Source: Methanobacteriota archaeon
Lineage (GTDB): Archaea; Thermoplasmatota; Poseidoniia; MGIII; CG-Epi1
DNA length: 64,000 nucleotides
Direction: 5' to 3'
Assembly: GCA_002687355.1 (NCBI GenBank)
Contig: NYZZ01000041.1
Location: 38,156 to 102,155, forward strand
Shown: piece by piece, positions 15,679 to 59,964 of the stretch
Layout of the letters: each line of letters opens with the position of its first letter
Numbering within the stretch: position 1 is the stretch's first letter
The notes under the pieces: generated by a model
The model's input: only the letters and a program-made list of their open reading frames with translations
What the model was told of the DNA's origin: nothing
Databases searched by the model: none
Program-made: the position numbers and the translations under genes

Positions 15679-16500
15679 CTATTTAAATTTACGCAGCGCA
15701 TTTATGACATCAATCGCCTGCCGCGTTGCTGCGACATCATGTACGCGTACGATGTCGGCGCCCGCCAGCGCAGCGGTGACCGCAGCGGCGAGTGAGCCAG
15801 GCAGCCGCTGCTCAGGTCCAGCACCTACTAGCATCTCCAGCCATGACTTGCGGCTGGCACCGAGAAGCATACCACCAGCAATATCCTTGAACTCGTCCAA
15901 CCGCGCCATCAGCGCTAAATTGTGCTCTAATGTTTTTCCAAAACCGATACCGGGATCGATGATGAGCTGGTCACGCATGATGCCTGCTTCCTCTGCGGCA
16001 GCGACCCGTTTTGCCAGCCACAACTTTACGTCAGCGACAATCTCGTTGTAATCGGGGTTGCGCTGCATTGTCTCTGGTGTACCCTGCATGTGCATTACCA
16101 CCACTGGAACGCCCAGCTTCGCCACTGCGGCAACCATTTCCGGATCACGCAGACCGCCGACGTCGTTAATCAGCACAGCACCAGCTTCCACGGCATCGCA
16201 CGCGATTGCCGGCTTGCGCGAGTCAATTGAAATCGGGATTTTCAGCTCTGCAGCGAGCGCAGCGATGACTGGCACGACTCGCTCTCGCTCCTCTGCTTCC
16301 GGAATTGGAGGTGCACCGGGGCGAGTGGACTCTCCGCCGACATCGATGATTTCAGCGCCATCTTCGACCATCTCACGTCCACGCGCGATTGCTGTTACAG
16401 TTGTACTATAGCGCCCCCGGTCGTAGAATGAGTCTGGCGTGACGTTCAGGACACCCATTACGCGACAGCGACCGTCCAGCTCTAGGCTACCGATGTGCAT
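15679..16500 (-). CDS. folP: dihydropteroate synthase
   Basis: Pterin-binding fold motifs (VMGVLNVTPDSFYDRG...IIDVGGESTRPGA...). Its start codon directly abuts the stop of the upstream giant gene. Confidence 0.85.
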   Translation of the reverse strand: MHIGSLELDGRCRVMGVLNVTPDSFYDRGRYSTTVTAIARGREMVEDGAEIIDVGGESTRPGAPPIPEAEERERVVPVIAALAAELKIPISIDSRKPAIACDAVEAGAVLINDVGGLRDPEMVAAVAKLGVPVVVMHMQGTPETMQRNPDYNEIVADVKLWLAKRVAAAEEAGIMRDQLIIDPGIGFGKTLEHNLALMARLDEFKDIAGGMLLGASRKSWLEMLVGAGPEQRLPGSLAAAVTAALAGADIVRVHDVAATRQAIDVINALRKFK

Positions 16501-19500
16501 CTATTCGCGTAGGACGAATTGCGACTGGCAATGAGGGCAGCCAACTTGGATGGGGCGCTGCGGTGTGTGGACTGCAAGAGTGCTGTTACATGATGGGCAC
16601 GCCAGCTCGAGCGGACCGTCCACAGTGTCGTCAAACTCTGCTTCGCCACCGTCGCCGCGCAACCACCCTATCCCCATCGCACCACCTGCCAGCAGTACCG
16701 TTCCGAGCAGTACCAATCCTAGCAGTTTCATCAAGTCCAATCCTCCCTCGTCGCCGTCGTCAGTAGTAGTTACGGCCGCCTTGACCGTCACCTGCACCTC
16801 ATTGCTCCCGGTTCTTTCGCCGCGCTCATCTTCGACCCACACCGCTGCGGTGTAGGTGCCGGGGGTGTTGAACACCTTGCTGAAGCTGCTCTTGTCATAG
16901 TCGTTAAGCAGGTTTACCTCACGACCCATTGGATCTGTCACGGTCCAGTCAAAGCTCAGCGCCGTATTGTCTCCGTCCGGGTCACTTGACTCAGCCGCCG
17001 AGAAAGTGACCGCCTCGCCGGTCTGCACCTCAATCCCGGTATCTGATGTTATAGGATTCCCCTGAACGAAGACCGTCACTCTCGCCATTGCTAGTGGTGG
17101 TTGGTTAGTGGCTCGCGTGACCGTTACGTAGAATGGGTCTGATGGTGCGCTAGTGAGCAGGTCGTCATCACCCAGCCCCGATGATAATTCACGCACGATA
17201 AGTTTTGCTTGATAGGTAATCTGATTGTTACCGGCTGGCAGGGTGTAGTTGTAGCCGTTACCAGTCAGGCCGGAGTTATCAACCTCCAGGAACTGCCCGT
17301 TGACCAGCTTGAAGACCCAGTCACCGCTACCGACGGACTTGCGAACTAAATCTCCGCTATCTAAATCACCGTCTGGGTTGAAGATTGGGTTGCGGTAGAG
17401 CAGTGTTACTCCCCCATCCTCCAGCCAGTCACTATAGATCCCATCGCCCAAAATGAGTCGGTACTCCAAATCAGCCCGGTCGTCCGGGTCGTACGAGGTG
17501 GAGAAGTCAAAGGTAACATACTCGCCCAGTGCGACAGACGTAGTGTTGCCGTTCAGCATCGCTATCGGTTGGCTGTTGGCCTTTACTGTCAGCGAGAGTA
17601 CGACTTCTTCTGACGGCAGATTCCTGCTATCGCGTACCTGAACCCGTATTAGGTATTCACCTGGATTGGTGAATTCAATATCTTCATCCCAGTCATTGCG
17701 CCAGGAGGTCCACCCCCCCGCGTAGAAGCGGTACTGCAGGTTAGGCACTTCGTCATCGGCATCCGCCATACCGTCGGTGGTTTCGTTGTCCCACGAGCCT
17801 CTGGCATCAACCCTCACCTTCTCATTGACCCACACCGTCGCGGTATCGAGTGTGGCGACCGCGTGCGGTGCATCGTTGGGCACTCCGTCCACATTTAAGG
17901 TAGTGAAGTCGGCGTTGTTGCTCTTGCGCGTCTCCTGACTAGAAAGGTCAATAACCTCAGCATACACTTCGTGGTAGCCTGGATCCAGATCCAGGTAGCC
18001 CCAGCCCAGTTCTAGGCTCAGCTCGGCCCCTGACGCGAGTGCCTGGCAGCCGTCTGGTTGGTTTGGCTCACTAACGCGACACGTGAACTCGCGCACCTCA
18101 TTCGACGAGCGTGGTTCCCCATCATAGATAGTAAGTCGCCATTCCGAAGTCGCGGCACCGCCCACGTTGCGGAAGGTGACGTTCACTTGCAAGTCATTGT
18201 CTTCGTTGGGCTGGTCGCTCTCGGCTGGTGCCGGCTCTTCACCGCCGACTCCGCTCCAGCTAATGGCGATATCGTCGCCCACCACCACCAAATCGGGGGT
18301 ACTGGTCTGTCCCACAGAGGTCATGACCCACAGGTAGACATTGCTTCCTGTGATGATTTCAGGGACTCCATCATTTTGTAGGTCAGCTATCTCCAATCCC
18401 CCATAGTGGGCGGTCATCCCGGAGAGTGAGCTAGTATGGGCTTCGTAATCCCGGGTCTCGCCATCGTAAACCCAGAGTTGGCCGCCATTGGTGCCCCACG
18501 CAATCTCGGAATGAGTATCATTGTCGAAGTCCCCACCGGCAATACCCCAGACGGAACCATAGTCAACTTCGCGGCTCCACTCCAGTGCGCGGCTCTCGCC
18601 GTTGTAAATGATAACGCGTGCCTTTTCGTCACCTTTCTTAGCGGTGCCAACTAGGATTTCGTTGCCTCCATCGTCATCCACATCAGTCAGGGCCAATCCA
18701 TACGCCTCACTCCGGTCAGTATCGATGATGTCCCCGTCGAGTTCATAGCTGCCGCCACTGGCGTGGTAGACTCGCACACTCCCCGACGCGGTGCCCGCTA
18801 CCAGTTCGTTCTGCGCGTCGTCATCGGCATTGCCGGTCGCCAGCCCCACTACGACTTCTTCTAGGTCGCCGCTGCCCCACTCCTCGCCGTAGCTGCTGCC
18901 GTCATAGCCGAATACCCGCACTTCACCATGTGGGTATGGAGTCACGGTGCTTCCTGACAGGACATACTCAATGTAGCCGGTGGCAACGCCGATTTCAGGG
19001 TAAGTAGAGCCGTCCAACTCCGTCACTGACAACCCCAGTGCCGAGTCGATGTTGTCGCTCTGGTAGCTCTGGGTAAAGCTATTGCCAGAGCGGTCGAAGA
19101 TGTAGAGATAACCTTCGCTTCCCTCACCATCCACGCGTCCTTCGTCAGGGGCACCGGTGCTGATTACAATTTCCACATCATTATCGTTGTCCACGTCCGC
19201 CACCACGATACCAACAGGCAGCTTCTCCATTACAGGGCTGACCCAGTCCACGACGTGCGTTTCACCGTCAAAGGCAACAACCTGTCCTGAGCCGCAGCCG
19301 ACCAGTACTTCCAGTGCCGGGTCATCATCAATATCGCCAGCAGCGACCCCCCAGGTCTGTCCGCCTCGCAAGCTGTAGACCGGGCTCCACTCACCCTGCT
19401 GGGGCTCGGTGCTCCAGACTAGTTGCGGGTCGTTGTTACCATCAATTTCCCACGCCTTCAGGACGCCATCATCACCACCGTGGATGACCCACGGTTTGGT

Positions 19501-20649
19501 ATGCATTAGGGAGACCGTAACGCCAGCTCCATTGCTCATCGATTCGCCGCTGTCCCACTCCAGTCGGGTCAGCAGCGAGGAGCCGCTAAGTTCTAGCACA
19601 TACAAGTCACCGTTTCCGACGGCGACCACTAACTCCGGGTTGTCGTTGCTGAAGCCGAGGTCAACTGCTTCTAGCCCGTACGCCGCCTTCAGATCGGTTC
19701 GCTGTACCTCTGGATGGCCGTCTAATAATTCCCCATCACGAAACACAGCTAACTTGTCAGCGCATCCAACGACTAGCTCGTCAATGCCACTGCCGTCTAG
19801 ATCGGCCGCCAGCAGGCCGTAGCAGTAACCGTCTAACGACTCGCCACCGAATTTGTAGCGCCATTGCCGGTCACCAGTTTGCCCATCGAAGACGCCGACC
19901 CAGCCCTGCTTGGTGCCAACCGCGATTTCTAGCGCGGGATCGCTGTCGAGCTGCCCCATCGTGATGCCCCAGACGTTCTCAATCTGCTGGTTATTGAAGT
20001 CCTCTTGCAGGTCTCGGTTCCACTCTGCTTCATCTGGGAAGACTTCTTTGTCCTCGTAAATCTCGGGAGTTACCGCGTCAACGACCCACAGACGCCCCAA
20101 ATCGGCCCCCACAGCCAGCTCAGGGCGACCATCACCATCCAGGTCGCCTGCTGCCAGCCCGAACGGTTCCATCTCCGCGTCGGTGGGGTTGTAGCCGTTG
20201 GACCAAGCGATACCACCAGATGTCCAGTTCTCCTCCGACCGCAGTAGTACTCCGTCCAGAATGCCAACCTTGCCACCAGCCGACCACCTGTAGCCGTATG
20301 CAATCTCTAATGGATCATCATCATCCAGCTGGTCGACGATTAGTCCCCTGACGCTGCTTCCTAGGTCGACCGAGTGCAGCTGACTGCTGTATTTGCTATG
20401 AGTTGCGTTCCAGTCGAGCACGTGCAGATATCCCTGTGCGTTGCCGGCCACTAGCTCGTCGTCACCATCACCATCAATGTCGGCTGCCACGATGGAGTCC
20501 AGTGCCCCCAGCGCGGTGCCCAGCCCGGCACTCCACTGCTCGCTCAGATAGCCGCGATTGGTGTCCGAACGTGCGTCATTCCCCGCCTCGGCGGGCGGAA
20601 ACGTCGGAAGCAGTGTTAGGACAAGCAGAATCGCCAGCAGGCGTCGCAT
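16501..20649 (-). CDS. giant integrin-like surface protein: signal peptide, ~14 FG-GAP repeats, Ig/PKD-like domains, one TM helix, cytoplasmic zinc-ribbon tail
   Basis: N-terminal signal peptide (MRRLLAILLVLTLLPTFPPAEAG). Recurring DxDGDG..ELxVG motifs, e.g. DIDGDGDDELVAG, DLDGDGRPELAVG, DLDGSGIDELVVG. A C-terminal hydrophobic helix LLGLVLLGTVLLAGGAMGIGWL, then CPSC...CPHC. Confidence 0.8.
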   Translation of the reverse strand: MRRLLAILLVLTLLPTFPPAEAGNDARSDTNRGYLSEQWSAGLGTALGALDSIVAADIDGDGDDELVAGNAQGYLHVLDWNATHSKYSSQLHSVDLGSSVRGLIVDQLDDDDPLEIAYGYRWSAGGKVGILDGVLLRSEENWTSGGIAWSNGYNPTDAEMEPFGLAAGDLDGDGRPELAVGADLGRLWVVDAVTPEIYEDKEVFPDEAEWNRDLQEDFNNQQIENVWGITMGQLDSDPALEIAVGTKQGWVGVFDGQTGDRQWRYKFGGESLDGYCYGLLAADLDGSGIDELVVGCADKLAVFRDGELLDGHPEVQRTDLKAAYGLEAVDLGFSNDNPELVVAVGNGDLYVLELSGSSLLTRLEWDSGESMSNGAGVTVSLMHTKPWVIHGGDDGVLKAWEIDGNNDPQLVWSTEPQQGEWSPVYSLRGGQTWGVAAGDIDDDPALEVLVGCGSGQVVAFDGETHVVDWVSPVMEKLPVGIVVADVDNDNDVEIVISTGAPDEGRVDGEGSEGYLYIFDRSGNSFTQSYQSDNIDSALGLSVTELDGSTYPEIGVATGYIEYVLSGSTVTPYPHGEVRVFGYDGSSYGEEWGSGDLEEVVVGLATGNADDDAQNELVAGTASGSVRVYHASGGSYELDGDIIDTDRSEAYGLALTDVDDDGGNEILVGTAKKGDEKARVIIYNGESRALEWSREVDYGSVWGIAGGDFDNDTHSEIAWGTNGGQLWVYDGETRDYEAHTSSLSGMTAHYGGLEIADLQNDGVPEIITGSNVYLWVMTSVGQTSTPDLVVVGDDIAISWSGVGGEEPAPAESDQPNEDNDLQVNVTFRNVGGAATSEWRLTIYDGEPRSSNEVREFTCRVSEPNQPDGCQALASGAELSLELGWGYLDLDPGYHEVYAEVIDLSSQETRKSNNADFTTLNVDGVPNDAPHAVATLDTATVWVNEKVRVDARGSWDNETTDGMADADDEVPNLQYRFYAGGWTSWRNDWDEDIEFTNPGEYLIRVQVRDSRNLPSEEVVLSLTVKANSQPIAMLNGNTTSVALGEYVTFDFSTSYDPDDRADLEYRLILGDGIYSDWLEDGGVTLLYRNPIFNPDGDLDSGDLVRKSVGSGDWVFKLVNGQFLEVDNSGLTGNGYNYTLPAGNNQITYQAKLIVRELSSGLGDDDLLTSAPSDPFYVTVTRATNQPPLAMARVTVFVQGNPITSDTGIEVQTGEAVTFSAAESSDPDGDNTALSFDWTVTDPMGREVNLLNDYDKSSFSKVFNTPGTYTAAVWVEDERGERTGSNEVQVTVKAAVTTTDDGDEGGLDLMKLLGLVLLGTVLLAGGAMGIGWLRGDGGEAEFDDTVDGPLELACPSCNSTLAVHTPQRPIQVGCPHCQSQFVLRE

Positions 20650-20709
20650 GCATTGCCCGCACCGTTCCGGATATTTGTAGTTTACCGCTCTATTTCCGTC
20701 GGTAATGGT

Positions 20710-20979
20710 TCACTCCTTGGACAATCTAGTTTGCAATGCGGTGCGCAATTCGATTTCGCCTAACCCGTCCGTATTGAGGCCCAGCCGCTCCGCCGCGGCG
20801 CGTAATTGCTCTTCCTCGCTGCGCTTTCCCACAGTGCCAAGCGGAAATGCGCGGTAACCCCGGAACTCCCGCCAAGCGACACCCAGTGAACGTGCGGCGT
20901 CAGCCATTCTCTGAGGGCCAAGCAGAACCCACGCCAGCAGGCCGATGACCAGCAGCTCTAACAGGCCGGGTCCGTTCAC
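20710..20979 (-). CDS. tatA: twin-arginine translocase TatA/TatE family protein
   Basis: An N-terminal TM helix followed by an amphipathic helix (LLELLVIGLLAWVLLGPQRMADAARSLGVAWREFR), matching the TatA pattern. Confidence 0.65.
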   Translation of the reverse strand: MNGPGLLELLVIGLLAWVLLGPQRMADAARSLGVAWREFRGYRAFPLGTVGKRSEEEQLRAAAERLGLNTDGLGEIELRTALQTRLSKE

Positions 20980-21317
20980 GAGGCGCCAAGCGCTTGCTCC
21001 AGAAAAGCGCGCCGTTCCGCCTGCGTTGTGGCGCTGATGCCAAAATACTCGTCGAATGCTTCCGTTACGGAGAGTGCGAAGCTGCGGCCGGCGCGCTCCC
21101 GTTCAAGCATCCCTAGCTCGAGTAGCTCGCCGACATGTTCGTAGACTCGGTCGCCCAGCCGACGTTTGAGCTCCGACTGCAGCATTGGTTGTTCATGCGC
21201 CACGAGCGCCAGCGTCCGGAGCAGGTGTCCCGGGATTTCCTGCGGCGCCAGTCGGCGACCATACGTAATCGTTTCACGTCGCAGCTGCAGTGCATACTTT
21301 CCGCCCAGTCGCACCAC
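20976..21317 (-). CDS. small winged-helix protein, possible single-domain ScpB-like SMC partner
   Basis: 113 aa with a G-R-S-F-A-L-S-V-T-E-A-F-D-E-Y-F-G segment resembling the ScpB wH 'GY.L.T.pef.ey' motif. Lies 150 bp downstream of scpA. Confidence 0.4.
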   Translation of the reverse strand: MVRLGGKYALQLRRETITYGRRLAPQEIPGHLLRTLALVAHEQPMLQSELKRRLGDRVYEHVGELLELGMLERERAGRSFALSVTEAFDEYFGISATTQAERRAFLEQALGAS

Positions 21318-21469
21318 TTCCAGTGCACTTTCACGGCCTTGGCAGGCGGCAATCAGCTCCTGCAGGGCCGCGTCCGCCGCCTTGAGAGAGAGTCCCGTAG
21401 CTTCAGCGACCTCCTGCGGCGTCAGCGGCCGGCCAGCAGAGAAGAGTGCAGCCTCAACTGCCTTGACAC

Positions 21470-21988
21470 TCAGCCTGCAGCCTCCCGATTTCGCACGTAA
21501 ATCGAGTGACTGCGCAAGTCCTTCTGCTGGATATCTATGCGGCCTTCCCGCGCCAGGAAAAGCGATCCAACGAAGGTGCGCACGAGGCTGGCGCGCTCGG
21601 GCACATCAACCAGGTCACCAAGCGGAATCGGTTTGCCATTCAGGGTGTTGATTTTCTGCCACACTTGCTCTTTGTAGAGCGTTGGATCGTCGTTATGGAT
21701 TTTATCTGCGAGGTGGCTAGCGCGGTCGTCCAGTACGGTTTGACGTGCCTCGCGCAGTTGCTTTCGTCGCTCTAGTCGCGCGCGGCGCGCCAGTTCCACC
21801 TGCCGTGCATCCTCGAGCGCGCCAACTAGCTCCATCAGCGTCACTCGCCGTTCACCGCGGAACCGCACCGTCTCCTCCAACGGCGGCTCGGCCGCCATAT
21901 CGAGTTGCTCAGCATAGGTAGGTTCCCATCCGAAGTCGAACGGAGCCCACTCCGCCTCTGGCTCTGGAAGCGGCTCGCTCGCCTCGAC
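21470..21988 (-). CDS. scpA: segregation and condensation protein A (kleisin) homologue
   Basis: The HELDPWQLDL segment matches ScpA motif wording and sits at residues 59-68 of the ORF-track protein 21470..22312, not at its N-terminus. The provided DNA has a TAA stop at plus 21989-21991 (minus-strand frame) that contradicts the track's continuous 280-aa ORF, so the 5' boundary is set at ATG 21988 as the longest stop-free reading. The 4-bp ATGA overlap with the smc stop refers to the track start 22312, not this boundary. Confidence 0.5.
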   Translation of the reverse strand, partial: VEASEPLPEPEAEWAPFDFGWEPTYAEQLDMAAEPPLEETVRFRGERRVTLMELVGALEDARQVELARRARLERRKQLREARQTVLDDRASHLADKIHNDDPTLYKEQVWQKINTLNGKPIPLGDLVDVPERASLVRTFVGSLFLAREGRIDIQQKDLRSHSIYVRNREAAG

Positions 21989-22308
21989 CGCGCCCGCCGA
22001 GCGCAGTCGTAGCACGTCCCAAGCCCATCCTAGGATAGCGCCTGCGAGTGGCAAGTCCAGCGCGCCTGCTCTGAGCGCGTGGTTCTGATATTCCTGCAGC
22101 ACTAGACCGAGGTCGAGCTGCCATGGGTCCAGCTCATGCTCGCGCACTAGCTGGAACAGCACTGCGATGCTCCTGGCAAGTGGATCCTCAATGGCCGTGA
22201 TTTCCGCCCCCGCCTCTGAAGCCTGCGCCAACTCCAGGTAGCCGTCAACCCGCTCCGTGTCGCCGCCAACGATGGCCTTGTGAAACAGCAGATGGTTCTC
22301 GACCAAGC

Positions 22309-25300
22309 TCACGCCGCTACATCCCCGACGGGCAGCGAAGCGATGAAGCTGTCAACGTCATGAATTTGATGCATGTGTGAGATTCCATCATCGGCCATGA
22401 AGACACCCAGCACGTGCGCCGCCTCGCGCAGTGCGGCATGGTGCAGGCTCACGACCAGGAACTGTGCAACCGTTGATTGCAATGCAATCGCGCGACCGAT
22501 GTGTTCGGTGTTAACTCCGTCTAGATTTTGATCAGGTTCATCGAGGAGGTAGAAGGGGCTCGGGTCGTAGCGTTGGATGGCGAAGATGAACGCCATGCTA
22601 ACGAGGGATTTTTCACCCCCAGAAAGTAATTCAATTGGGAAGAGCCGCTTGCGCGGCATGCGCGCCTTGATTGAAACGCCCCCCTCGAAAACTGAATCTG
22701 GCTTCTCCAGTTCCAGCCATGCCTTACCACCTCCAGCTAGCTCGGTAAAGGTGGCTTGGAAGTTCTCATCGATGTGTTTATAAACTTCAGTAAACCGCTC
22801 CAGTTTGCGCGCCGATATCTTGGCTTCGAGCGACTCGAGCCTTCGCACTTCCTTGCGCAACTGCTTGCGGTCTTCACGGATGCGTACCAGCCGCTCTTCC
22901 TCCTGCCTGTAGTGCTCGAGTGAGAGCATGTTAACGTTACCCAGCCGGGTGCGCTGCCCTTCGAGCGACTCCCGCTGCACTTCCAGTTGTTCCGCTCCAC
23001 CCACTTGCGAGGGTTGCTCTGCATTCTTAGGCAGCCGCTGCCGCGCTTCCACCAGCTTTGGCTCACGCACCTGGATTTCCAGTTGCAGTTCATCTATAGC
23101 TGTATGCCGACCACGGCCGAATTCTTCGCGTTGTGCCAGTGTAGTTCGTTGGTCGCCGAGCTGGTCGCGTAGGCCGTCACGTCGCTGTCGCAATCCCTCC
23201 AGCTCCTCGAATTTTTCATGTTCCTCTTGCTCTAGTGAGGTAACTTGCTGCGCCAGTTTGCGCGCTAGCTTACGTTCAGTGGCATGCTGCTGCTGGGTCT
23301 CGCGTTGGCCAGTGTTGTTTTGCTCCAGCGCGGCGGCAAGTCGCTGCACTTCCACTGTTGCTGGCACCTCTCCCGCCTCCAACCGCGCCACCTCAGCGCG
23401 TGTCTCAGCCAGTTCGTCACGTAGTGCGGTGAGCGTTTCTTGCAGCTGCGCCAGCGCCTTCGCCTCGGTACCACCGGTAAGCAGCAGTAGATGTTCGGCG
23501 GCTTGCGCAACGCTCTCGTGCTGTGCCACGATCTTGCCCTGCAGCTTTGCCAGTGCTTTCTCGCGCTGCGCCAGCTCGGTTTCCAGCGTCGCCACAGCAC
23601 CTTGGCGTGCCGCGAGTGCATCAGCTACCAGCTGCAGCTGTTCGGCGCTACGTGACACAGTTGAGTCGTAATCGGTGACGCGCGTCTGTATAGTCGCGCA
23701 CTCACTCTCCAGGGCAGCCTTTGCCTGTACTACCACTGTGAGCTCCTCGCGCAGTGTGCTGGCAGTCGCTCCTAGCTCTAGGTTGCGCGCCTGCGCTACC
23801 TTTACGCCTGTGGCCAGTTCATCGAGCGTAGCACGGTCACCGGTCGCAAAGTGTACCCGCGCCCGCGGTGACGATCCACCAGTCATTGCGCCGCCTGGCT
23901 CGAGCAGTTCACCCTCAAGTGTGACCATGCGTCCTTTGCCTAGGAGGGTGCGGGCTTCACGCAGTGAGCGCATGATGACTGTGTCACCAAAAACATTTCC
24001 AAAGGCGTCCGCGTAGCGGGAGTCAAACTGCACCAGTTCCTGCGCAAAGCCAATCGCGCCGGGTTGCTTGAGCAGCAGTAATGCGTTGGCGCGGGGGCGG
24101 TAGCGTCGTAGTTTGTTGAGTGGCAGGAATCGCACCCGCCCCAGCCGGCGTTGTTTCAGGAATTCGATGGCTGTCTCGGCCGCCGCGTCGTCCTCGACCA
24201 CTACCGACTGCATGCGACCGCCCGCTGCGACTTCTAGCGCCAGAGCGTGCTCTTCATCAACTCGCCCTAGCTCGGCAATCGTGCCTACGATGCCAGGCAA
24301 GCCGCCCGCGTCGCGCGCCGCCAGTACTCCCTGCACTGCGCGCGCGTAGCCACCCAGTTCATCTTGCGTGCGCTGCGCAGCCTGTTCAGCAGCCAGTGCA
24401 ACGCTCGCTTCGTGTAGCTCGCGTTCCGCCCCCTCGAGCGCTTCACTAATCTGTGCCAGTTCCCCGTTTAGCTTGTCGTACTTGCGCGTTACCTTGCGCA
24501 GGTTATCTGCTGCGGACTTGCGCCCTAATTGTAGATCTTGCAGATGAAAGTCGATGTCATCAACGTCAGCCTGCGCCGCCACGAGCAACTGTTCGTTACC
24601 CGTCGCCTGCTCACGCGCCTGCGTTAGCTGTAGTTCAAGTTGCTCACGCTCGCCTTCCAACCGGTGGCGCTGCATTTCCAGCGCGCCTGCAGCCTGCCGT
24701 AGCTCGTCCAGTGTAACGCGCTGGGCCTCGATTTCCTGCGATCCACTCGCAGCCGCTCCCTCCCGTTTCGCGAGCTCCGTCTCATTCTCTGCCGCTTGCT
24801 CCACGAGCGTTTCAGTCTCGCTACGAGCTGTATCGAGCGATTTGCGCAGCACCTTTAGTTCAGCAGCAGCAGCGTGATGCTCAGTACGAAGTGTCTTGCG
24901 CATTGTTTCCAGCTCCGTCAGCTGCTTTTGCGCTTGTTCTGAATTGCTTTGGGCCAGTGCCTGTGCGACGCGGGCCTCATCCAGTTGCTGCTGCAATTCG
25001 CGAGCACGGTCGCCGCCGGCGGCGGAGATATCCTCTTCTACATTTTTATATTCGTTTTCGAGAGTTCCAATAGTTGTTTGCCGCTCTTTCAGCTCCCTTT
25101 CCAGCTCTTCCAGCTCTTCTCGGTAGCGAATAACAACCTCGCGACGCGATTCTAGGGAAGCTTCTAGGTCAAGCACCTGCCGCCAGTGACGCAGCAGTTC
25201 GTTTTCTTGCAATTGCAGTAATATGGCTTCAAGCCGTTCGGCATCCCGCTTCTCGCGCTCGAGCTGCCGCAGCAGGCGCTGGACCTCCCGCATTCTCTCT

Positions 25301-25893
25301 TCCAGCAGAGCTAGATCTGCGCCCACATGTTCGCGAGCGGCACGGGTCTTTCGCAATCGCTGGTCGTAGGCAGTTATACCAGCAACATCCTCCAGTTTGC
25401 GCCGTCGCTCGGTTCCTGACATCAGCGAAGTCTGCGTGACGTCCCCTTGTTGGATAATGTTGTAGCCGGTAGCATAAAGTCCGGCACGCGAGAACAGTGC
25501 TTCAAACTCGCTTGCCGAAGAGGGCTCGTTGTTGAGTCGATAGTGGGTAACGGGCTTGCCGCCGCGTAGCTTGACGCTCTTGGTGAACTTGACAACGTCG
25601 CTCTCGATTGATAGATAGCGATCAGAGTTATCGAATAACATGCTCACTCGGCAATGCTTAGCTGCAGATTTGCGTCGCTTTCCTTCTTGGTAGCCGTAAA
25701 TCAACTGACTCAGCCGTCGTGCGCGCAGCAGTTTGGTCGAGCGCGAGCCGAGGATGAAGAGGATGGCATCGGTGATGTTGCTTTTGCCTGAGCCGTTAGG
25801 ACCAGTGATGCAAGTGAAACCGGCTCCGAGGGGAACGGTGACGTGGCCTTTGAAGGATTTAAAGTTCTCGAACTCAAGTTCGAGAAGTCGCAA
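22309..25893 (-). CDS. smc: chromosome segregation ATPase SMC
   Basis: 1194 aa. Walker A GPNGSGKSN; long coiled coils; hinge GIVGTIAELGRVDEEHALALEVAAGG; signature and Walker B LSGGEKSLVSMAFIFAIQ...LLDEPD. Confidence 0.9.
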   Translation of the reverse strand: MRLLELEFENFKSFKGHVTVPLGAGFTCITGPNGSGKSNITDAILFILGSRSTKLLRARRLSQLIYGYQEGKRRKSAAKHCRVSMLFDNSDRYLSIESDVVKFTKSVKLRGGKPVTHYRLNNEPSSASEFEALFSRAGLYATGYNIIQQGDVTQTSLMSGTERRRKLEDVAGITAYDQRLRKTRAAREHVGADLALLEERMREVQRLLRQLEREKRDAERLEAILLQLQENELLRHWRQVLDLEASLESRREVVIRYREELEELERELKERQTTIGTLENEYKNVEEDISAAGGDRARELQQQLDEARVAQALAQSNSEQAQKQLTELETMRKTLRTEHHAAAAELKVLRKSLDTARSETETLVEQAAENETELAKREGAAASGSQEIEAQRVTLDELRQAAGALEMQRHRLEGEREQLELQLTQAREQATGNEQLLVAAQADVDDIDFHLQDLQLGRKSAADNLRKVTRKYDKLNGELAQISEALEGAERELHEASVALAAEQAAQRTQDELGGYARAVQGVLAARDAGGLPGIVGTIAELGRVDEEHALALEVAAGGRMQSVVVEDDAAAETAIEFLKQRRLGRVRFLPLNKLRRYRPRANALLLLKQPGAIGFAQELVQFDSRYADAFGNVFGDTVIMRSLREARTLLGKGRMVTLEGELLEPGGAMTGGSSPRARVHFATGDRATLDELATGVKVAQARNLELGATASTLREELTVVVQAKAALESECATIQTRVTDYDSTVSRSAEQLQLVADALAARQGAVATLETELAQREKALAKLQGKIVAQHESVAQAAEHLLLLTGGTEAKALAQLQETLTALRDELAETRAEVARLEAGEVPATVEVQRLAAALEQNNTGQRETQQQHATERKLARKLAQQVTSLEQEEHEKFEELEGLRQRRDGLRDQLGDQRTTLAQREEFGRGRHTAIDELQLEIQVREPKLVEARQRLPKNAEQPSQVGGAEQLEVQRESLEGQRTRLGNVNMLSLEHYRQEEERLVRIREDRKQLRKEVRRLESLEAKISARKLERFTEVYKHIDENFQATFTELAGGGKAWLELEKPDSVFEGGVSIKARMPRKRLFPIELLSGGEKSLVSMAFIFAIQRYDPSPFYLLDEPDQNLDGVNTEHIGRAIALQSTVAQFLVVSLHHAALREAAHVLGVFMADDGISHMHQIHDVDSFIASLPVGDVAA

Positions 25894-26889
25894 TCAGAAG
25901 GCCTCCAAGTGCGCCTGCCTAGGTTCGGCCGGCAGCACATCAAGATTGCCCCTGACTCCAGCATAGTGCTGCTGTCGGTACATCTTCCAGAAGCCAGAAA
26001 TAAGTCGGCCACGATCGCCGCGGTCGCCTGCGACCAGTGCCGAGAGGTAGCTGCTGCGGTCCTCACGTTGCCAGAGTGGAGTCGGCAGTCCCGCACGGGC
26101 GTACATTCCCTCAAGCAGCAGTCGCGCCACGAGTCCGTTACCCGCTGTGAAAGGTCGCAGCTGTAGCAGGCGGTGGTGGAATAGCGCTGCTCGTTCGAAC
26201 GGGTGCAGCGGCGAAGGTTCGTGCCACCACTCGAGCAACGCTTCTAGTTCATCTTCAACTAGTACCGGAGGTGGGGGAACGAACGCTGAACCAGGTAGGC
26301 TGGCACTCTCCTGCCGCAGTAGGCCGCCGTCGCCTTGCCCTTCGCGCAGTTCCTGATGCATTTTTAGGATGGTGCGTCGGTCGAGCCGTGCAACACGTTC
26401 GCCCGCTTCGCGGTGCAGCCTCCGCAGAGCAAGAAGTTCCAGCACGCGTGTCAGCGGAACACCTGCAGGCGCGCGATCATGCAGCAGAATAGCCTCGGTT
26501 TGTTCACGTGCCAGTGGCTCGGAGGTGAGTAGTAGGTTGCCATGTACTGCCTGTAGCTCGAGACGCTGTGATTCACGCGCTAGAGCTGCAGGAGGCTGTA
26601 GCCGATTCATCGCACGACGCAGGAACTTGAGACGTTGCAGTCCCTTCAGCGCTTTCAAATCAAGGTACGGAGTGCGGAACATGTCGGCCGATGCCTTCAC
26701 CATGCGCTCCACTGCAGCCAGCTCCAATTCAGGTCCGTGGACTGCCTTGAGACGCTCCTGTTCATTGTCATCCGGCTCTTCAGGACCGATATAGTGCTGC
26801 ACTTTCTCGACACGTCCATTGAACTTGAACGATTTGACGAGGTACCAGTACTGTTGCCCGCGTGTGGTCTTGCATGTAAGGTAAACCAT
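25894..26889 (-). CDS. Fic/Doc-fold protein with degenerate active-site motif (LRPFTAGNGLVAR instead of HPFx[DE]GNGRxxR)
   Basis: ALFHHRLLQLRPFTAGNGLVARLLL aligns to the Fic core. The catalytic His, the acidic residue and the first Arg are all substituted. Its stop directly abuts the smc start. Start set at MVYLTCK (ATG 26889) to leave a divergent promoter with arsC; the ORF is open to 27048. Confidence 0.55.
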   Translation of the reverse strand: MVYLTCKTTRGQQYWYLVKSFKFNGRVEKVQHYIGPEEPDDNEQERLKAVHGPELELAAVERMVKASADMFRTPYLDLKALKGLQRLKFLRRAMNRLQPPAALARESQRLELQAVHGNLLLTSEPLAREQTEAILLHDRAPAGVPLTRVLELLALRRLHREAGERVARLDRRTILKMHQELREGQGDGGLLRQESASLPGSAFVPPPPVLVEDELEALLEWWHEPSPLHPFERAALFHHRLLQLRPFTAGNGLVARLLLEGMYARAGLPTPLWQREDRSSYLSALVAGDRGDRGRLISGFWKMYRQQHYAGVRGNLDVLPAEPRQAHLEAF

Positions 26890-27053
26890 AAGCTTGGGGT
26901 TATTGGTTCCACCTTTTAAAGTTTTTGGATTAAGGTTTCCAGTGAGAATATGGGCGTTGCACCACCTTTCCATAGGGAATAGAGCGTAGTGGGGGGAACT
27001 ATAGGCGTCGAACAGGAGATAGGTTTTTGGCACACTGCAGAGTTCCACCCACT

Positions 27054-31332: not shown

Positions 31333-32724
31333 CTAGAATACGGTTGTCGAAAGGAAATAATAGATTAGGTATAGTCCGACAATAACCATGACTACACCTC
31401 CCCCTATCTCAATCTGGCGAGTAGAAGCTTTCAATTTATCAACAATCGTGGATTCAGATGCAGCGACTACCGTTGTGAATGCAACCATAAGGGCCCCAGC
31501 CGTAGCCGAGAATATCAAGAAAACAGACAGTCCCGTAAGGATTCCTCTCCCGATGCTCGCAGTTAACAGCCCTACAATGACTGGAGCCACACAGCCTGTC
31601 GCAGCAGAGCCATAGGCAACACCATACCAGAAAAGTCCAGTTCTAGTTCCGTCTGCGTTATCGGAGAAACTAAATTCTTTCCCCGTGGTCATCCTGATAA
31701 CGCTTTCGACACCATTCTTGACCATAATCATTGGTTGTGAACTAGATACGGCCGACATCAGGTCTCTGAATGGTCCGACTATCATGTTGGAGTCATATTC
31801 TATTACCATTACGGTACCCATGGATAGAATCAGGATGCCTACAACCAGTTCGAGTACAGGAATAAACCCTCCGATTATACTAACAAATGGAACTAGTAAA
31901 ATTCCAATTAGTAACAGAATCCCCATTAATCCAGCAGCGGCGGCTAAGCCATCTGGTAAAGCTTCTTTTGCGGTTTGTTCATTAAATTTACCGGTGCGAC
32001 TCTTCTTGCTAGACAGGTAGAAGGACATGTAGCCAGGTAACATGGGAAATGAACATGGTGAAAAGAAAACCATAACACCCGCTCCGACGGCAAACAAGTA
32101 TATCGAGGATTCCTTTACCTTAACGAGTGTACCTTGCCCTGTCAGGGCTTTATTAACTTCTAATTCCAGTTCATTTGAACTCTTGGGAACAGACTTCCCT
32201 GTCGTACCGCCTGCTTCGTAGGTAATTTGTCCATTCTTGTCAATAATGAATAGTTTAGGAGTTCCAGTGACGCCATATGCAAGTTCGATATCGCCGTTAG
32301 AATCGCCCATTGCATGTATCCATCCAAAATCCTCCGCATAATTTCGCAGCTCCGATTCATCATCTTCACCGAAGACACTTACTGAGATGATAACTACGTC
32401 GCCGTTGTCCATATTCTTAGAATATGGTTCAAGCGCATCATCCACAAATTTTTCACACGGCACACATGTAGTGAACATAAAATCCAGAACGACTACTTTT
32501 TCACCTTCGTAATCCGAGAGTGAGAATGTATTTCCTCCAGTATCTTTTAGTGTGAAATCCGGGGCATCAGACTCTCCTCCAATCATTCCATACAGGACAA
32601 CAGCCAGAATCAAAATCATGGCTGTTCCTATGCCAAATAGTACCTTGTTCTCGAGGATGGTATTGTATGCCTTGCTCCGACTTACGTCCTCAACCAGAAC
32701 ATCCCAATTCGTCTTTTGAGTCAT
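31333..32724 (-). CDS. TlpA/ResA-like thioredoxin domain fused to CcdA/DsbD-type transmembrane electron-transfer domain
   Basis: An N-terminal TM anchor, then the thioredoxin fold with CVPC active site (DFMFTTCVPCEK). This is followed by a polytopic domain starting FFSPCSFPMLPGY (CcdA TM1 Cys motif). Lower GC than its surroundings. Confidence 0.75.
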   Translation of the reverse strand: MTQKTNWDVLVEDVSRSKAYNTILENKVLFGIGTAMILILAVVLYGMIGGESDAPDFTLKDTGGNTFSLSDYEGEKVVVLDFMFTTCVPCEKFVDDALEPYSKNMDNGDVVIISVSVFGEDDESELRNYAEDFGWIHAMGDSNGDIELAYGVTGTPKLFIIDKNGQITYEAGGTTGKSVPKSSNELELEVNKALTGQGTLVKVKESSIYLFAVGAGVMVFFSPCSFPMLPGYMSFYLSSKKSRTGKFNEQTAKEALPDGLAAAAGLMGILLLIGILLVPFVSIIGGFIPVLELVVGILILSMGTVMVIEYDSNMIVGPFRDLMSAVSSSQPMIMVKNGVESVIRMTTGKEFSFSDNADGTRTGLFWYGVAYGSAATGCVAPVIVGLLTASIGRGILTGLSVFLIFSATAGALMVAFTTVVAASESTIVDKLKASTRQIEIGGGVVMVIVGLYLIYYFLSTTVF

Positions 32725-32783
32725 GCCTACGATAGGGCGTACTACAGTTTGTATTTATCTATTTGTTATCTGCCCTGCTTCTA

Positions 32784-34244
32784 CTAATCTGTAGCTACAG
32801 AAGGCTTTCTAGCCCAGAAAATAAATCCGGATACGCACGCTATCAATATAACTCCACCAATGATTAACAACACAGGCAGACCTTTCTTTTCTTCGGGCGT
32901 CATAGCCGAGACAGTAGCCACGTCGGTACTTCCCTTCGTCCAGTTACCATCGTACGCTACGATGCTATACTCAACCTCTGTAGAATCATCTACATTGAGA
33001 ACAGCAAAAGATTCTCCGCTCCCGATTGTACATATATCTCCATCACACACCTCTCCATTTATGGTCATAGGCTTGTAGGACCAATTATAGGATATATTTG
33101 AGATATGGGAAGCTTCGCGATAGATGACCAGAGCTGCAGTCAGTTCACCACCATCATCCTCGATAACAGCATTAATCTTCACTTTTCCATTTTCAGAAGT
33201 TGGTTTCTCTAGCTCAATCGACGGTGGGCTTGCTTCTTCATCGTAAGCAGTACCTTCGGGCGTCGCCGAATTCAGTGCTCTGGGGGACCCGTCATTTCCG
33301 TCTCCTCCATCTTCATTACCACTTCCATCCCCCCTACTAGAACTAGTGTCATCCATGTCATAAACAACAGCAACCGGGTACACGTTCCGGGGGTTAATAG
33401 GAACTCGAATAGGTTCCTCTATTCCATCTCTAACGATAGTGCTAGGGACCAACCAGTCAGCATAGATTTCATTCAGAGATTCACCTGGCTGAAGTTCAAA
33501 ATCTTTCCCCTCAAGAGCATATTCCCTGAACACATTGTGCATGGTTACGTCAGCATCATTGACGGTACTCCAAGCTGTAACATGATCCTCTACCATGAAA
33601 ATGTGAAGCCGTCCGTTGAGAGTATCATCTGGCAATTCCATGCTCATTGGATCGAAATTTTCGTTGTTCTCAATGTATTCTATATCTACCCTGACTGAAA
33701 AGCGCTGCCCGTCATAAATGGAGGCGACCTTAAGATTCACCATCTTAATCTGGTCCCTTTCTCCAGAATCTTGGAGTGCGCTTTTCATTTCCTCATAATT
33801 TGCACTCGGAGCATTCGCGCTATGTGAGCCTCCCATCTCTACATATCCACCATCAGCGTCTAGAGATGGAGTACCAGAGACTCCAGGCTGGTAATATTTC
33901 ATCCGATCCCGCGACTCATCAGTCATAAGATCATCCTCACCGCCTCCGTTTAGTTCATGGAATTCTATGTAGTTCCAAGGGTTCCCCTCTGTGTATCCTT
34001 CTTCCTCCCAGAGTCGCGTTGCGTCGGGATGCGCCACACTCATGCAAGGAGGACAGGAAAGCCCAGTGAAGTGCTCAAGTATAGGCCGATGGGTCCATTG
34101 ATATGGGTGTTCAGAATTCTCGGTTTCAACACCCTGAATCTCAGCCGCCAAGCTGGAAGTAAATGATGTGCAGAACGAAAGTGCAATCGCTATTGCTACG
34201 GCAACCTTAACCGACTCGAACACATTTCTGTACCCAGCAGGCAA
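32784..34244 (-). CDS. secreted/membrane-anchored protein with CPPC thioredoxin-like motif, acidic linker, Ig-like region and C-terminal TM anchor
   Basis: A signal peptide, then HFTGLSCPPCMSVAHPD, a Gly/Asp linker DGSGNEDGGDGNDGS, and a C-terminal helix LPVLLIIGGVILIACVSGFIFW. Low-GC island. Confidence 0.5.
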   Translation of the reverse strand: MPAGYRNVFESVKVAVAIAIALSFCTSFTSSLAAEIQGVETENSEHPYQWTHRPILEHFTGLSCPPCMSVAHPDATRLWEEEGYTEGNPWNYIEFHELNGGGEDDLMTDESRDRMKYYQPGVSGTPSLDADGGYVEMGGSHSANAPSANYEEMKSALQDSGERDQIKMVNLKVASIYDGQRFSVRVDIEYIENNENFDPMSMELPDDTLNGRLHIFMVEDHVTAWSTVNDADVTMHNVFREYALEGKDFELQPGESLNEIYADWLVPSTIVRDGIEEPIRVPINPRNVYPVAVVYDMDDTSSSRGDGSGNEDGGDGNDGSPRALNSATPEGTAYDEEASPPSIELEKPTSENGKVKINAVIEDDGGELTAALVIYREASHISNISYNWSYKPMTINGEVCDGDICTIGSGESFAVLNVDDSTEVEYSIVAYDGNWTKGSTDVATVSAMTPEEKKGLPVLLIIGGVILIACVSGFIFWARKPSVATD

Positions 34245-57623: not shown

Positions 57624-58400
57624 TCAGGTATCGTATCTCTTTGGCAAACCAAGCAGGTCCCCTATTCCTTTGAACGTTCCTGTTACAGATTCTATCAAAG
57701 AAACGCCATATTTTTCCGAAACAAAATGGGCTATGACCAAGTATACCGACGCCCCGATCACTTGTAGTGGAAAACTTTCTGGTATCCCCATAAATCCAAT
57801 CTCACCAAACTCATGTATAGATTTCATCACAAGATAAGCTGCAAATCCAATTAGTAATGAGGTAGACAGATTGAACATGAATCTGATATCAAGATTCTTA
57901 GTGGAAGCAAAGAGTGCATATCCAATTATTACGGCCAACACAATCCCAATGAATAGACCCGTAATGGCATCACCACTTTCCGTTCCTGCACCTATGAAAA
58001 TGACGGTTTCAACACCTTCTCTCCAAACTGAAATGAAGGCTAGTAGGCCAATTCCAAATGCCTCACGCGTTTCAATCGCCTTTTCTGCTTTATTTTCTAG
58101 AACTTCTCTAGTCGCGTGTCCTATAACGTGCAGAATGACAGTGGTAATCAGTACTGCGGCAATTAGATACAGCACACCTTCAAAAAGCTCCTCATTCGTC
58201 TTTGAGAACTCACCAACAATGACCTCGAAGGCTTGCCAAGTTAACACGCTAGCTACAAGCGCGAGTAAGACTCCACCCCAGACCCATTTGGCCATAAATT
58301 TTCTATCAGTTCTATACAGTAGACTAACCAATACACCTATTATAAGTGCAGCTTCGAGAGCTTCTCGAAATCCAATCAGAAAGCCCGCTTCCATGTCCAT
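57624..58400 (-). CDS. FTR1/EfeU-family high-affinity iron permease
   Basis: Two RExxE motifs in TM helices (FREALEAAL, WREGVETVIF). 258 aa. Markedly lower GC than flanking genes. Confidence 0.7.
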   Translation of the reverse strand: MDMEAGFLIGFREALEAALIIGVLVSLLYRTDRKFMAKWVWGGVLLALVASVLTWQAFEVIVGEFSKTNEELFEGVLYLIAAVLITTVILHVIGHATREVLENKAEKAIETREAFGIGLLAFISVWREGVETVIFIGAGTESGDAITGLFIGIVLAVIIGYALFASTKNLDIRFMFNLSTSLLIGFAAYLVMKSIHEFGEIGFMGIPESFPLQVIGASVYLVIAHFVSEKYGVSLIESVTGTFKGIGDLLGLPKRYDT

Positions 58401-58432
58401 TTTTCACATCTCTATTACTTAGGGCAGTCCAA

Positions 58433-58448
58433 TTTAGGTCAACCTAAA
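58433..58448. promoter_or_regulatory. operator-like palindrome 1, TTTAGG-tcaa-CCTAAA
   Basis: A perfect 6-bp inverted repeat with 4-bp spacer in the ftr1/dtxR divergent intergenic region. It resembles DtxR/IdeR box half-sites (TTAGG...CCTAA). Confidence 0.55.
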
Positions 58449-58466
58449 AACCATCTCTATATAAAA

Positions 58467-58482
58467 TTTAGGCCACCCTAAA
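58467..58482. promoter_or_regulatory. operator-like palindrome 2, TTTAGG-ccac-CCTAAA (adjacent TATA-like tatataaaat)
   Basis: A second identical-arm palindrome 34 bp from the first, immediately flanked by an AT-rich TATA-like element. Confidence 0.55.
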
Positions 58483-58513
58483 TCATATTGTATATAATAC
58501 GATAAATGAGTTA

Positions 58514-58529
58514 TTTAGGGTTTCCTAAA
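58514..58529. promoter_or_regulatory. operator-like palindrome 3, TTTAGG-gttt-CCTAAA
   Basis: A third copy 47 bp from the second and ~30 bp upstream of the dtxR ATG. The position is consistent with autoregulation. Confidence 0.55.
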
Positions 58530-58559
58530 TTTTTTATACGACTCCATCTGTAATCTGCC

Positions 58560-59557: not shown

Positions 59558-59636
59558 CCGGCGCAAAAGCGTTTAACTACCTCCTAAGTGGCGCGCCCAC
59601 CGCGGTCCAGAGGGGCCCGATAATGGAGTGAATCAT

Positions 59637-59957: not shown

Positions 59958-59964
59958 ATAAGGT

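Follow-up and report, generated by a model that had tools for sequence, protein, structure and literature searches.

A stretch of 64,000 nucleotides from an archaeon of the class Poseidoniia (contig NYZZ01000041.1, positions 38,156 to 102,155, hereafter the window) carries on its minus strand, at 16501-20649, a gene that I hereafter call X, encoding a protein of 1382 residues. X is built of FG-GAP and PKD-type domains, is conserved among Poseidoniia, shares its whole C-terminal cassette with an S8 peptidase, ends in a ribbon related to the Zn_ribbon_4/5 family, and lies in a block of genes whose order is maintained. With moderate confidence, I take X to be a type-I, Ca2+-dependent surface binder whose cytoplasmic ribbon docks an intracellular partner common to X and the S8 peptidase; the partner of the tail is itself a postulate of this analysis. 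Coordinates below are those of the window, and all features of X are on the minus strand.

The open reading frame (ORF) of X starts with ATG and stops at 16501-16503. Hydropathy analysis reveals two hydrophobic segments only, residues 1-22 and 1304-1330. The first (20584-20649) resembles a signal peptide (MRRLLAILLVLTLLPTFPPAEA, followed by GND), with a predicted cleavage after AEA, and a signal-peptidase-type motif, [VA]-[ED]-[AG]↓[AG]-N, is found in 117 of the 120 homologues listed by the search described below. The second (16660-16740) reaches a Kyte-Doolittle peak of 2.23 and contains, on the Hessa scale, the sole 19-residue window with a negative insertion energy (residues 1309-1327, -0.73 kcal/mol), the runner-up being the signal peptide (+5.7). 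In the same 120 homologues, the 15 residues preceding this segment contain on average 0.2 K+R, versus 1.6 for the 15 residues that follow, a bias that agrees with an N-out/C-in topology. Hydropathy and charge distribution thus predict that X has a signal peptide and a single transmembrane (TM) segment and that its tail is cytoplasmic. The protein is very acidic (pI about 4, D+E 17%); its 7 sequons do not exceed the number expected from shuffling (8.4 ± 2.7), and a scan against NCBIfam gave no family match.

Two other features of the sequence were considered and dismissed. Export by the Tat pathway, an idea suggested by the upstream tatA gene and the N-terminal MRR, was rejected because the RR pair is not conserved (X starts with MRRLL, its orthologues with MKAAK..., MQRF... 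or MNPVK...) and because tatA is absent from the block of the divergent branch. The RGD triplet of X (GWLRGDGG, residues 1333-1335, 16645-16653) was taken as a chance occurrence since it is absent from most homologues and lies on the predicted cytoplasmic side.

The predicted exterior includes two FG-GAP beta-propellers. Propeller 1 (blades 1-7, residues 50-413, 19411-20502) was delimited by Pfam matches to FG-GAP_3, FG-GAP and BBS2_Mid, by the strands of an AlphaFold2 model and by blade parsing; propeller 2 (blades 8-14, residues 432-791, 18277-19356) by Pfam matches (best FG-GAP_3 stretch at 707-766, Beta-prop_BBS7 at 606-725), by the model, by matches to tandem-propeller folds and by weak sequence matches to Ca-binding blades of integrins alpha4, alpha6 and alphaV (E 3e-5 to 3e-3). 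FG-GAP_3 (PF13517) recognises six stretches of X with a score of 79.1 bits, for a cut-off of 26.9, and FG-GAP (PF01839) reaches 42.5 bits, for a cut-off of 22.1. Further downstream, residues 1206-1289 are matched by both PKD_4 (PF18911; 55.2 bits, cut-off 27) and PKD (PF00801; 36.4 bits, cut-off 23.5). By these scores X belongs to both the FG-GAP and the PKD families. The AlphaFold2 model of residues 1-800, for which the input was a 10-sequence family alignment, is all-beta and comprises 14 four-stranded blades (predicted local distance difference test score, pLDDT, 74; predicted template modelling score 0.61), 13 of which open with the FG-GAP signature h-G-h-x-x-x-D-h-D-x-D...E-h-h-h-G, a Ca-type loop. 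Its best fold matches in the PDB, SF3B3, DDB1 lacking BPB, and Utp21 (E about 1e-18, TM-score about 0.47), are tandem 7+7 propellers and fit two seven-bladed propellers; they do not point specifically to integrins. At the sequence level, the family profile weakly matched CRTAC1, the Ca-binding blades of integrins alpha6, alpha4 and alphaV, and ITFG2 (E 1e-5 to 3e-3), a likeness that reflects ordinary FG-GAP kinship. The BBS2_Mid and Beta-prop_BBS7 matches are also above cut-off, but a relation to the BBSome was set aside, the matches being presumably a matter of general similarity between FG-GAP-like propellers, because FG-GAP_3 matches the same regions. Binding of Ca2+ and of a ligand by the propellers is presumed.

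The propellers are followed by a stalk, which in the model of residues 786-1382 (pLDDT 73) is composed of four beta-sandwich domains. Domain 1 is CARDB-like (about 787-920, 17890-18291; weak CARDB match at 811-912) and contains two cysteines, Cys857 and Cys868, that are conserved in the family alignment. Domains 2 (about 925-1025, 17575-17877) and 3 (about 1030-1180, 17110-17562) are Ig/PKD-like; the former was matched by Foldseek to chains of Ig-like domains, and the latter contains an insertion. Domain 4 (about 1185-1290, 16780-17097) is the PKD domain detected by Pfam; its sequence matches in the PDB are the PKD domains of KIAA0319L and ColH, and with it begins the cassette that X has in common with the S8 peptidase. 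The fold matches of the stalk are generic Ig-like domain chains, with some S-layer proteins among them. A poorly conserved Thr/Asp-rich juxtamembrane linker (residues 1291-1303, 16741-16779) connects the stalk to the TM segment.

Beyond the helix, the tail comprises 52 residues. It begins with an acidic linker (GWLRGDGGEAEFDD..., residues 1331-1344, 16618-16659), in which an F-E/D is nearly invariant in the alignments, and continues with a Cys4 zinc ribbon (residues 1345-1382, 16504-16617) that has invariant columns, is Zn_ribbon_4/5-like and conforms to GPLELaCPSCxxxxxxxxxQRPIQVGCPxCQSQFVLRE. Four of the nine cysteines of X (C1351, C1354, C1371 and C1374) form the motif CPSC-x16-CPHC, the last one being 8 residues away from the C-terminus. 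In the AlphaFold2 model, four short strands surround both CxxC pairs (pLDDT 53-62), an arrangement that corresponds to the zinc-ribbon pattern of two CxxC knuckles and two beta-hairpins; binding of zinc by the tail is accordingly presumed. A search of PDB sequences with a narrow profile of the X tail gave nothing significant, the best match being ribosomal S27e (E 0.19).

A first homologue search retrieved 227 proteins. The 120 that were listed are full length (1374-1435 aa), are 46-100% identical to X and, where their sources give a name, are called either 'PKD domain-containing protein [Candidatus Poseidoniia/Poseidoniales archaeon]' or 'hypothetical protein'. P0189, which represents a divergent branch, is 34% identical to X and colinear with it along the full length; a search started from P0189 yielded 46 further proteins, which brings the near-full-length homologues to at least 166. 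The genome records that contain X are labelled MGIII (Marine Group III; CG-Epi1, CG-Bathy1 and single cells), 'Poseidoniia', 'Thalassarchaeaceae' or 'Methanobacteriota', labels that place the window in the class Poseidoniia, whether in Marine Group II or in MGIII. On the strength of these homologues, X is a real, strongly conserved gene of Poseidoniia (Marine Groups II and III, MGII/MGIII) and no chance ORF. The four cysteines, their exact 16-residue spacing and the 8 residues to the C-terminus are retained in all of the 120 listed homologues and in 44 of the 46 further ones; the two proteins lacking an intact Cys4 tail are truncated or frameshifted gene calls.

The degree of conservation varies along X. 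In an alignment of six representatives with pairwise identities below 75%, mean column conservation is 0.84 for the zinc ribbon (residues 1345-1382), with 55% invariant columns, and 0.76 for the propellers, with 34% invariant columns, as against 0.57 for the TM segment and 0.58 for the acidic linker. The ribbon ranks 32nd among the 1345 windows of 38 residues that can be drawn along X (top 2.4%), and it is equalled only by the mature N-terminus and a few blades. At the level of the gene block, X is the least or joint-least conserved member (43-54% identity, versus 55-90% for most of its neighbours); in one comparison, for instance, identity is 53% for X, and 82% for Fic, 73% for SMC, 87% for ScpA, 90% for ScpB, 82% for TatA and 79% for FolP. 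X is the fastest-evolving protein of the block, and yet the ribbon is among its most conserved segments. A fast-changing exterior combined with a frozen tail is the pattern expected for an exposed surface protein whose tail touches something conserved.

An earlier note on this DNA, made from the sequence by itself, had described X as a protein with a signal peptide, about 14 FG-GAP repeats sufficient for two seven-bladed propellers, Ig/PKD-like modules, a Thr/Asp linker and one TM helix. This description agrees with the present data: there are exactly two hydrophobic segments, only one of which is TM-like on the Hessa scale, the FG-GAP and PKD hidden Markov models score above cut-off, the model gives 14 blades, and of the four sandwich domains that precede the linker the last is a PKD domain. 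The note had also proposed that the tail is structured as a zinc ribbon and that homologues retaining it should be sought. The strands placed around the CxxC pairs by the model and the persistence of Cys4 in 164 of 166 homologues bear out the proposal; the Cys4 motif was correctly recognised, but the spacing is of 16 residues instead of 17 and the tail of 52 residues instead of 55.

The tail also occurs on a second surface protein. Word-based searching with the 52-residue tail by itself was uninformative, yielding no more than 3 short fragments. The last 50 residues of X were therefore turned into a profile, which was run exhaustively against 1.84 billion representative proteins and gave 209 matches at E<=1e-3; one of them, P0127 (923 aa, 14 matching stretches), was discarded as a spurious low-complexity repeat ORF. 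Among the matches, proteins of about 1090 residues in the P0142 and P0157 groups ('S8 family serine peptidase') consist of an S8 peptidase domain, CARDB and PKD, and end in an X-type cassette (...QRPVQLGCPHCQAQFVLRE); their source names are Poseidoniia and Marine Group III. The cassette comprises an NQPP-PKD domain, a Thr/Gly/Asp linker, a Gly-rich TM segment, an R-rich stop, an acidic F-E/D linker and a zinc ribbon, ...CPxCxGxISVxTxQRPxQxGCPxCQxQFxxRE. A genome scan with two tail patterns, one genome per species, yielded 57 loci, in which the tail-bearing ORF is either X (31) or the S8 peptidase (26) and nothing else; several metagenome-assembled genomes (MAGs) encode both, and no tail-bearing gene other than X was found in the 64-kb window. 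X and the S8 peptidase thus have the same C-terminal cassette and occur in the same MAGs, whereas their ectodomains differ, that of the peptidase being a subtilase with CARDB repeats and that of X a pair of FG-GAP propellers, as do their gene neighbours, which for the peptidase are peptidase C11, DHODH, GT2, DUF6580 and a PRC-barrel protein. S08A peptidases are reported to be the dominant, highly transcribed extracellular peptidases of MGII/III (PMC4660358; PMC6864105). The presence of the same tail on a protease speaks for a module of generic docking or anchoring and against a tail that signals for one ligand. Since the whole cassette is common to both proteins, the most likely function of the tail is to fix, position or retain surface proteins at the membrane via a common intracellular partner.

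In 15 loci, a gene for a clostripain-type peptidase C11 (about 850 aa) lies directly upstream of the S8 gene, on the same strand and with a median gap of -39 nt (for example L062:4112-6718), which suggests a two-protease surface operon. The C11 protein has no zinc-ribbon tail.

Related ribbons are found in other archaeal proteins, with copy numbers of 1 to 7 in the tails of type-I membrane proteins. Signal-bearing single-pass proteins with 2-7 tandem ribbons in the tail include P0124, P0135, P0137, P0141, P0162, P0163, P0207, P0237 and others; those named are from Thalassarchaeaceae and Thermoplasmatales, and the ectodomains are unassigned beta-rich, PKD, FixG_C-like Ig, NosD/beta-helix or BNR. 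A few proteins have zinc ribbons N-terminal to TM segments, and ribbons are also present on proteins without a predicted TM segment, namely two Hsp70/DnaK, a receiver-domain protein and coiled-coil proteins. To judge from predicted topologies, the ribbon would be on the cytoplasmic side in every architecture. The spacing between the CxxC pairs is of 16 residues in 255 of the 278 units extracted, and the consensus is h-x-C-P-x-C-x3-h-x-[VI]-x4-R-P-h-x-[VI]-x-C-P-x-C-x3-[F/h]-x-[LI]-[KR], where R is present in 77% and P in 74% of the units; its short form is CPxC-x10-RP-x4-CPxC, hence the name RP-type used here.

Pfam contains no model specific for the RP-type unit. At E<=1, all of 61 units were matched by PF13717 and 52 of the 61 by PF13719, each unit by itself remaining below cut-off. 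With whole proteins, no family was matched more often than PF13717 (29 of 90 at E<=1e-5, best E 3.1e-17), and P0137, at 46.3 bits, passes the PF13717/PF13719 cut-off. Zn_ribbon_4/5 (PF13717/PF13719) is the family matched most consistently by RP-type units. When compared to the PDB, the unit profile matched LysW (E 6e-5), then the ribbon of AgmX/GltJ ('Adventurous gliding motility protein X', E 5.7e-4; the chain was printed as 7zok_A, the code given in the paper being 7Z0K) and 2nb9_A, a 49-aa 'uncharacterized protein' (E 0.13), which is presumably the ZitP zinc ribbon.

Two of the proteins that matched the tail profile are chaperones. P0153, a metagenomic protein of 756 aa (JGI), is a complete Hsp70/DnaK (PF00012, E 5e-239) followed by three C-terminal RP-type ribbons, and a second Hsp70 likewise carries such ribbons. 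These fusions may hint at the docking target of the ribbon.

X is embedded in a conserved set of genes. The window shows the succession fic, smc, scpA, scpB, tatA, X and folP, all on the minus strand. The five genes upstream of X (20710-27048, assigned by Pfam matches) abut or overlap each other, and a gap of 60 nt separates tatA from X; this gap contains an A+T-rich element, acaaatat (20671-20678, minus strand), 22-29 nt upstream of the ATG of X, which could be the TATA box of a separate X-folP promoter giving a leaderless mRNA. The stop codon of X (TAG, 16503-16501) is directly followed by the ATG, at 16500, of folP (dihydropteroate synthase, 15679-16500, minus strand; Pterin_bind E 1.1e-83), as the earlier note had read, and an abutting or 4-nt overlapping arrangement is the rule in 31 related loci, except for one in which a gene for a TM2-domain protein is inserted between X and folP. 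The order of the block is the same in all related loci of sufficient length, 31 in total, the genes beyond it being variable; in the branch at 34% identity it reads smc, small ORF, scpA, scpB, X, folP, and tatA is absent. The block can be read as a long-lived operon-like unit in streamlined genomes. No conserved gene for a small partner protein was found beside X or beside the S8 gene in the loci examined, and no partner was identified.

Several observations concern genes in or near the block. The scpB frame of the window (20976-21473, minus strand) stays open over 165 codons, which matches the orthologues in length; the conserved start position overlaps the scpA stop, but the codon there reads Leu instead of ATG, GTG or TTG, and the first canonical start leaves only 113 aa, so that scpB would have either a non-canonical start or a shortened product. 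In a divergent Poseidoniia lineage (L063:10570-13762), three genes are located about 1.4-4.6 kb downstream of X-folP. They encode a CDP-alcohol phosphatidyltransferase, a phosphatidylserine decarboxylase and a protein of 482 aa that Exosortase_EpsH and Peptidase_U4 match weakly, a trio that recalls haloarchaeal archaeosortase ArtA with PssA and PssD. In two MGIII loci (L014:12790-13149 and L039:15322-15744), X-folP is followed at a distance of 2.6-5 kb by a small ORF of 120-141 aa, the end of which weakly matches the zinc ribbon (E 1.5e-3 and 1e-2; ...IECPGCSATMELQKTGEMQDVICDACGLKGELEV).

Elsewhere in the window, G+C content drops to 0.447 at 32001-34000, versus about 0.58 elsewhere, with a strongly negative GC skew. 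The dip coincides with an ORF of 486 aa (32784-34244, minus strand) that belongs to no Pfam family, and the DNA here may be of foreign origin or evolve fast. G+C is low again (0.479) at 58001-60000, just upstream of a gene (60555-62891, minus strand) for a 778-aa protein made nearly entirely of pentapeptide repeats (PF00805, 18 stretches, E 1e-152).

The reading that I favour can be formulated as follows. X would be exported by virtue of a Sec-type N-terminal signal peptide and halted in the membrane by its C-terminal helix. The two Ca2+-loop propellers would be held off the membrane by the four-domain Ig-like stalk and the acidic Thr-rich linker, and would most likely bind an external ligand, be it a particle, a polymer or cell-surface material. 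Inside the cell, the short acidic linker would bear the 38-residue Cys4 ribbon, to which a conserved cytoplasmic partner would dock, and the ribbon most likely fixes or positions both X and the S8 peptidase via a common intracellular partner, in the way ZitP and GltJ do in bacteria. The Zn_ribbon_4/5 family includes the cytoplasmic ribbons of the bitopic proteins ZitP and GltJ, which makes the 'partner anchoring' put forward in the earlier note reasonable. That no conserved gene for a small cytoplasmic partner was found next to X or the S8 gene is one of several points that weigh against the favoured reading. Zn_ribbon_4 (PF13717) scores only 13.2 bits on whole X, for a cut-off of 30.3, and 20.9 bits, still below cut-off, on the isolated 35-aa unit. 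Since relatives retrieved with the tail profile do pass, the ribbon of X is best considered a divergent relative of Zn_ribbon_4/5 and no scored member. The PDB matches of the unit profile are modest or weak, and partly piecewise. In the AlphaFold2 model the ribbon is predicted with a pLDDT of just 53-62, and the TM segment is not helical (pLDDT below 35). FG-GAP repeats are by themselves no proof of adhesion. Finally, that X is universally present, and in a housekeeping block, is compatible with a structural role in the envelope as well.

The last point leads to the alternative that deserves most attention, unlikely as I think it is, namely that X is a structural S-layer-type glycoprotein, the main or anchoring component of the surface, whose ribbon is a folded cytoplasmic plug for the C-terminal anchor. 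The earlier note had discarded a simple S-layer role, and this dismissal is not supported: X is conserved across Poseidoniia lineages and always in the housekeeping block; it is large and very acidic, with a signal peptide, a chain of Ig-like domains and a Thr-rich linker at its C-terminal anchor; and the fold of its stalk matches those of S-layer proteins of Haloferax (7ptp), Deinococcus (HPI) and Bacillus anthracis (Sap). On the other hand, its sequon count does not exceed the shuffle expectation, a plain plug would not need the invariant surface residues QRPIQVGCP and the C-terminal RE, nor would it be expected on DnaK or coiled-coil proteins, and the literature searched contained no expression data for X. 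No FG-GAP double propeller is known to serve as the lattice unit of an S-layer. That the cassette is instead a sorting or processing signal, comparable to PGF-CTERM/archaeosortase or LPXTG/sortase and removed or modified upon display at the surface, is highly improbable. A C-terminal TM segment with a conserved tail on exactly two surface proteins per genome is a typical pattern for such signals, and in one divergent lineage a gene resembling archaeosortase, flanked by PssD/PssA-like genes, is located 3 kb away from X; but known signals have short basic tails and no Cys4 domain of 38 residues, the helix is preceded by no PGF or comparable motif, and the ribbon occurs in up to 7 copies in other tails as well as on soluble proteins.

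The earlier note had called X integrin-like and envisaged transmembrane signalling, and I regard an integrin-like receptor signalling outside-in or inside-out through its ribbon tail as improbable. The domain order does resemble that of integrin alpha, some blades have a weak sequence likeness to those of alpha4, alpha6 and alphaV, and in bacterial focal adhesions the ribbon of GltJ belongs to a molecular switch. However, X has two propellers, no Integrin_alpha2 match and no GFFKR, the conserved block contains no beta-subunit-like gene, and X is accompanied by no signalling gene, be it for a kinase, a GTPase or another protein; the identical tail at the end of the S8 protease argues against ligand-specific signalling. 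Nothing indicates transmembrane signalling, and only the analogy stands. A functional link of X with SMC-ScpA-ScpB, whereby the tail would tie the envelope to chromosome organisation, has still less to recommend it and seems to me very improbable. It could account for the preservation of smc-scpA-scpB-(tatA)-X-folP in all loci examined, even where X is only 34% identical, and with variable flanks, and there is a precedent in ZitP-PopZ, where a bitopic ribbon protein is connected to the ParB centromere complex. Yet the block also contains fic, tatA and folP, of unrelated functions, the 60-nt gap and its TATA-like element suggest that X-folP is a separate transcription unit, the tail-bearing S8 peptidase is encoded elsewhere, and streamlined marine genomes keep synteny without functional coupling. 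A broader conjecture, improbable but of consequence if true, is that the RP-type ribbon marks an undescribed, Thermoplasmatota-wide system that couples the tails of surface proteins to one intracellular hub, for example a cytoskeletal, polar or chromosome-organising scaffold. In that case, propeller binders, proteases, beta-helix and S-layer-like proteins would all be coupled to a hub also used by DnaK and receiver-domain proteins, X beside smc-scpA-scpB would be a core link between envelope and interior across Poseidoniia, and the whole would correspond, in archaea, to focal-adhesion or polar-organiser systems.

Poseidoniia (Marine Groups II and III) count among the most abundant archaea of the plankton, and no member is known to have been cultured. 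X is class-wide, fast-evolving outside and frozen inside, which makes it a candidate for the main point of contact with the surroundings, viruses included. The sharing of the cassette with the S8 protease, and the related ribbons on many other archaeal surface proteins, would point to a common anchoring principle, and the 38-residue domain offers a handle with which to fish for the intracellular partner. Even if there is no partner, the present description is a better annotation than 'PKD domain-containing protein'.

X can be compared with several kinds of known proteins. For its tail, there are counterparts in bacteria. The N-terminal zinc ribbon of ZitP (PF13719) binds PopZ and serves as a localisation signal in the cytoplasm (PMC5182065), and that of GltJ binds its own linker and then, once released, MglB in bacterial focal adhesions (PMC11135422). 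Like X, ZitP of Caulobacter and GltJ/AgmX of Myxococcus are single-pass membrane proteins with a cytoplasmic Cys4 two-hairpin ribbon of about 35-40 residues, joined to the helix by a flexible linker. By contrast, their ribbon is N-terminal (type-II) while that of X is C-terminal (type-I), their outside domains are DUF3426 and TonB-C in place of propellers and PKD, and the RP motif with its fixed 16-residue spacing is distinctive of the archaeal units. The likeness to this family is sub-threshold for X itself, for which neither PopZ nor MglB nor a GYF domain is implied as partner.

The comparison with integrin alpha concerns the other side of the membrane. Both proteins have an FG-GAP propeller with D-x-D-x-D-G Ca2+ loops, an Ig-like leg, a single TM segment and a short conserved tail, and the sequence likeness of X to the Ca-binding blades of alpha4, alpha6 and alphaV is weak but real (E 3e-5 to 3e-3). 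However, X, from an archaeal host, has two tandem propellers (14 blades) where integrin alpha has one, legs of the CARDB/PKD type instead of thigh and calf, no Pfam match to the Integrin_alpha2 leg domain at E<=1, and a Cys4 ribbon as its tail, the GFFKR of integrin alpha being absent from it and from all aligned homologues. With no thigh or calf, no GFFKR, two propellers and no beta subunit found in the conserved block, X is no member of the integrin alpha family, and the resemblance is an architectural analogy.

In repeat family and fold, X is akin to the generic prokaryotic FG-GAP/VCBS + PKD proteins and to the propellers of CRTAC1/ASPIC and ITFG2/BBS2, CRTAC1 being the best PDB sequence match of the X family profile. 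Generic FG-GAP/VCBS + PKD proteins are usually secreted, or anchored by lipid or sortase, and have no cytoplasmic domain; none at the cell surface is known to have a zinc-ribbon tail. The haloarchaeal S-layer glycoprotein csg resembles X in being acidic, in its signal peptide and Ig-like domains, and in the Thr-rich linker beside its C-terminal anchor, and the X stalk matches the fold of the Haloferax S-layer (7ptp). It has, however, a PGF-CTERM/archaeosortase signal and is not known to have a cytoplasmic domain or propellers, whereas the aligned C-termini of X contain no PGF-CTERM motif ahead of the helix and X gave no NCBIfam match. In the literature searched (Marine Group II/III, FG-GAP, PKD, adhesion, peptidase, MJ0042), no description of X, its tail, the cassette or RP-type tails was found. 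X, already present in databases as a 'PKD domain-containing protein', is related on one side of the membrane to the FG-GAP/PKD surface proteins and on the other to the bitopic zinc-ribbon adaptors.

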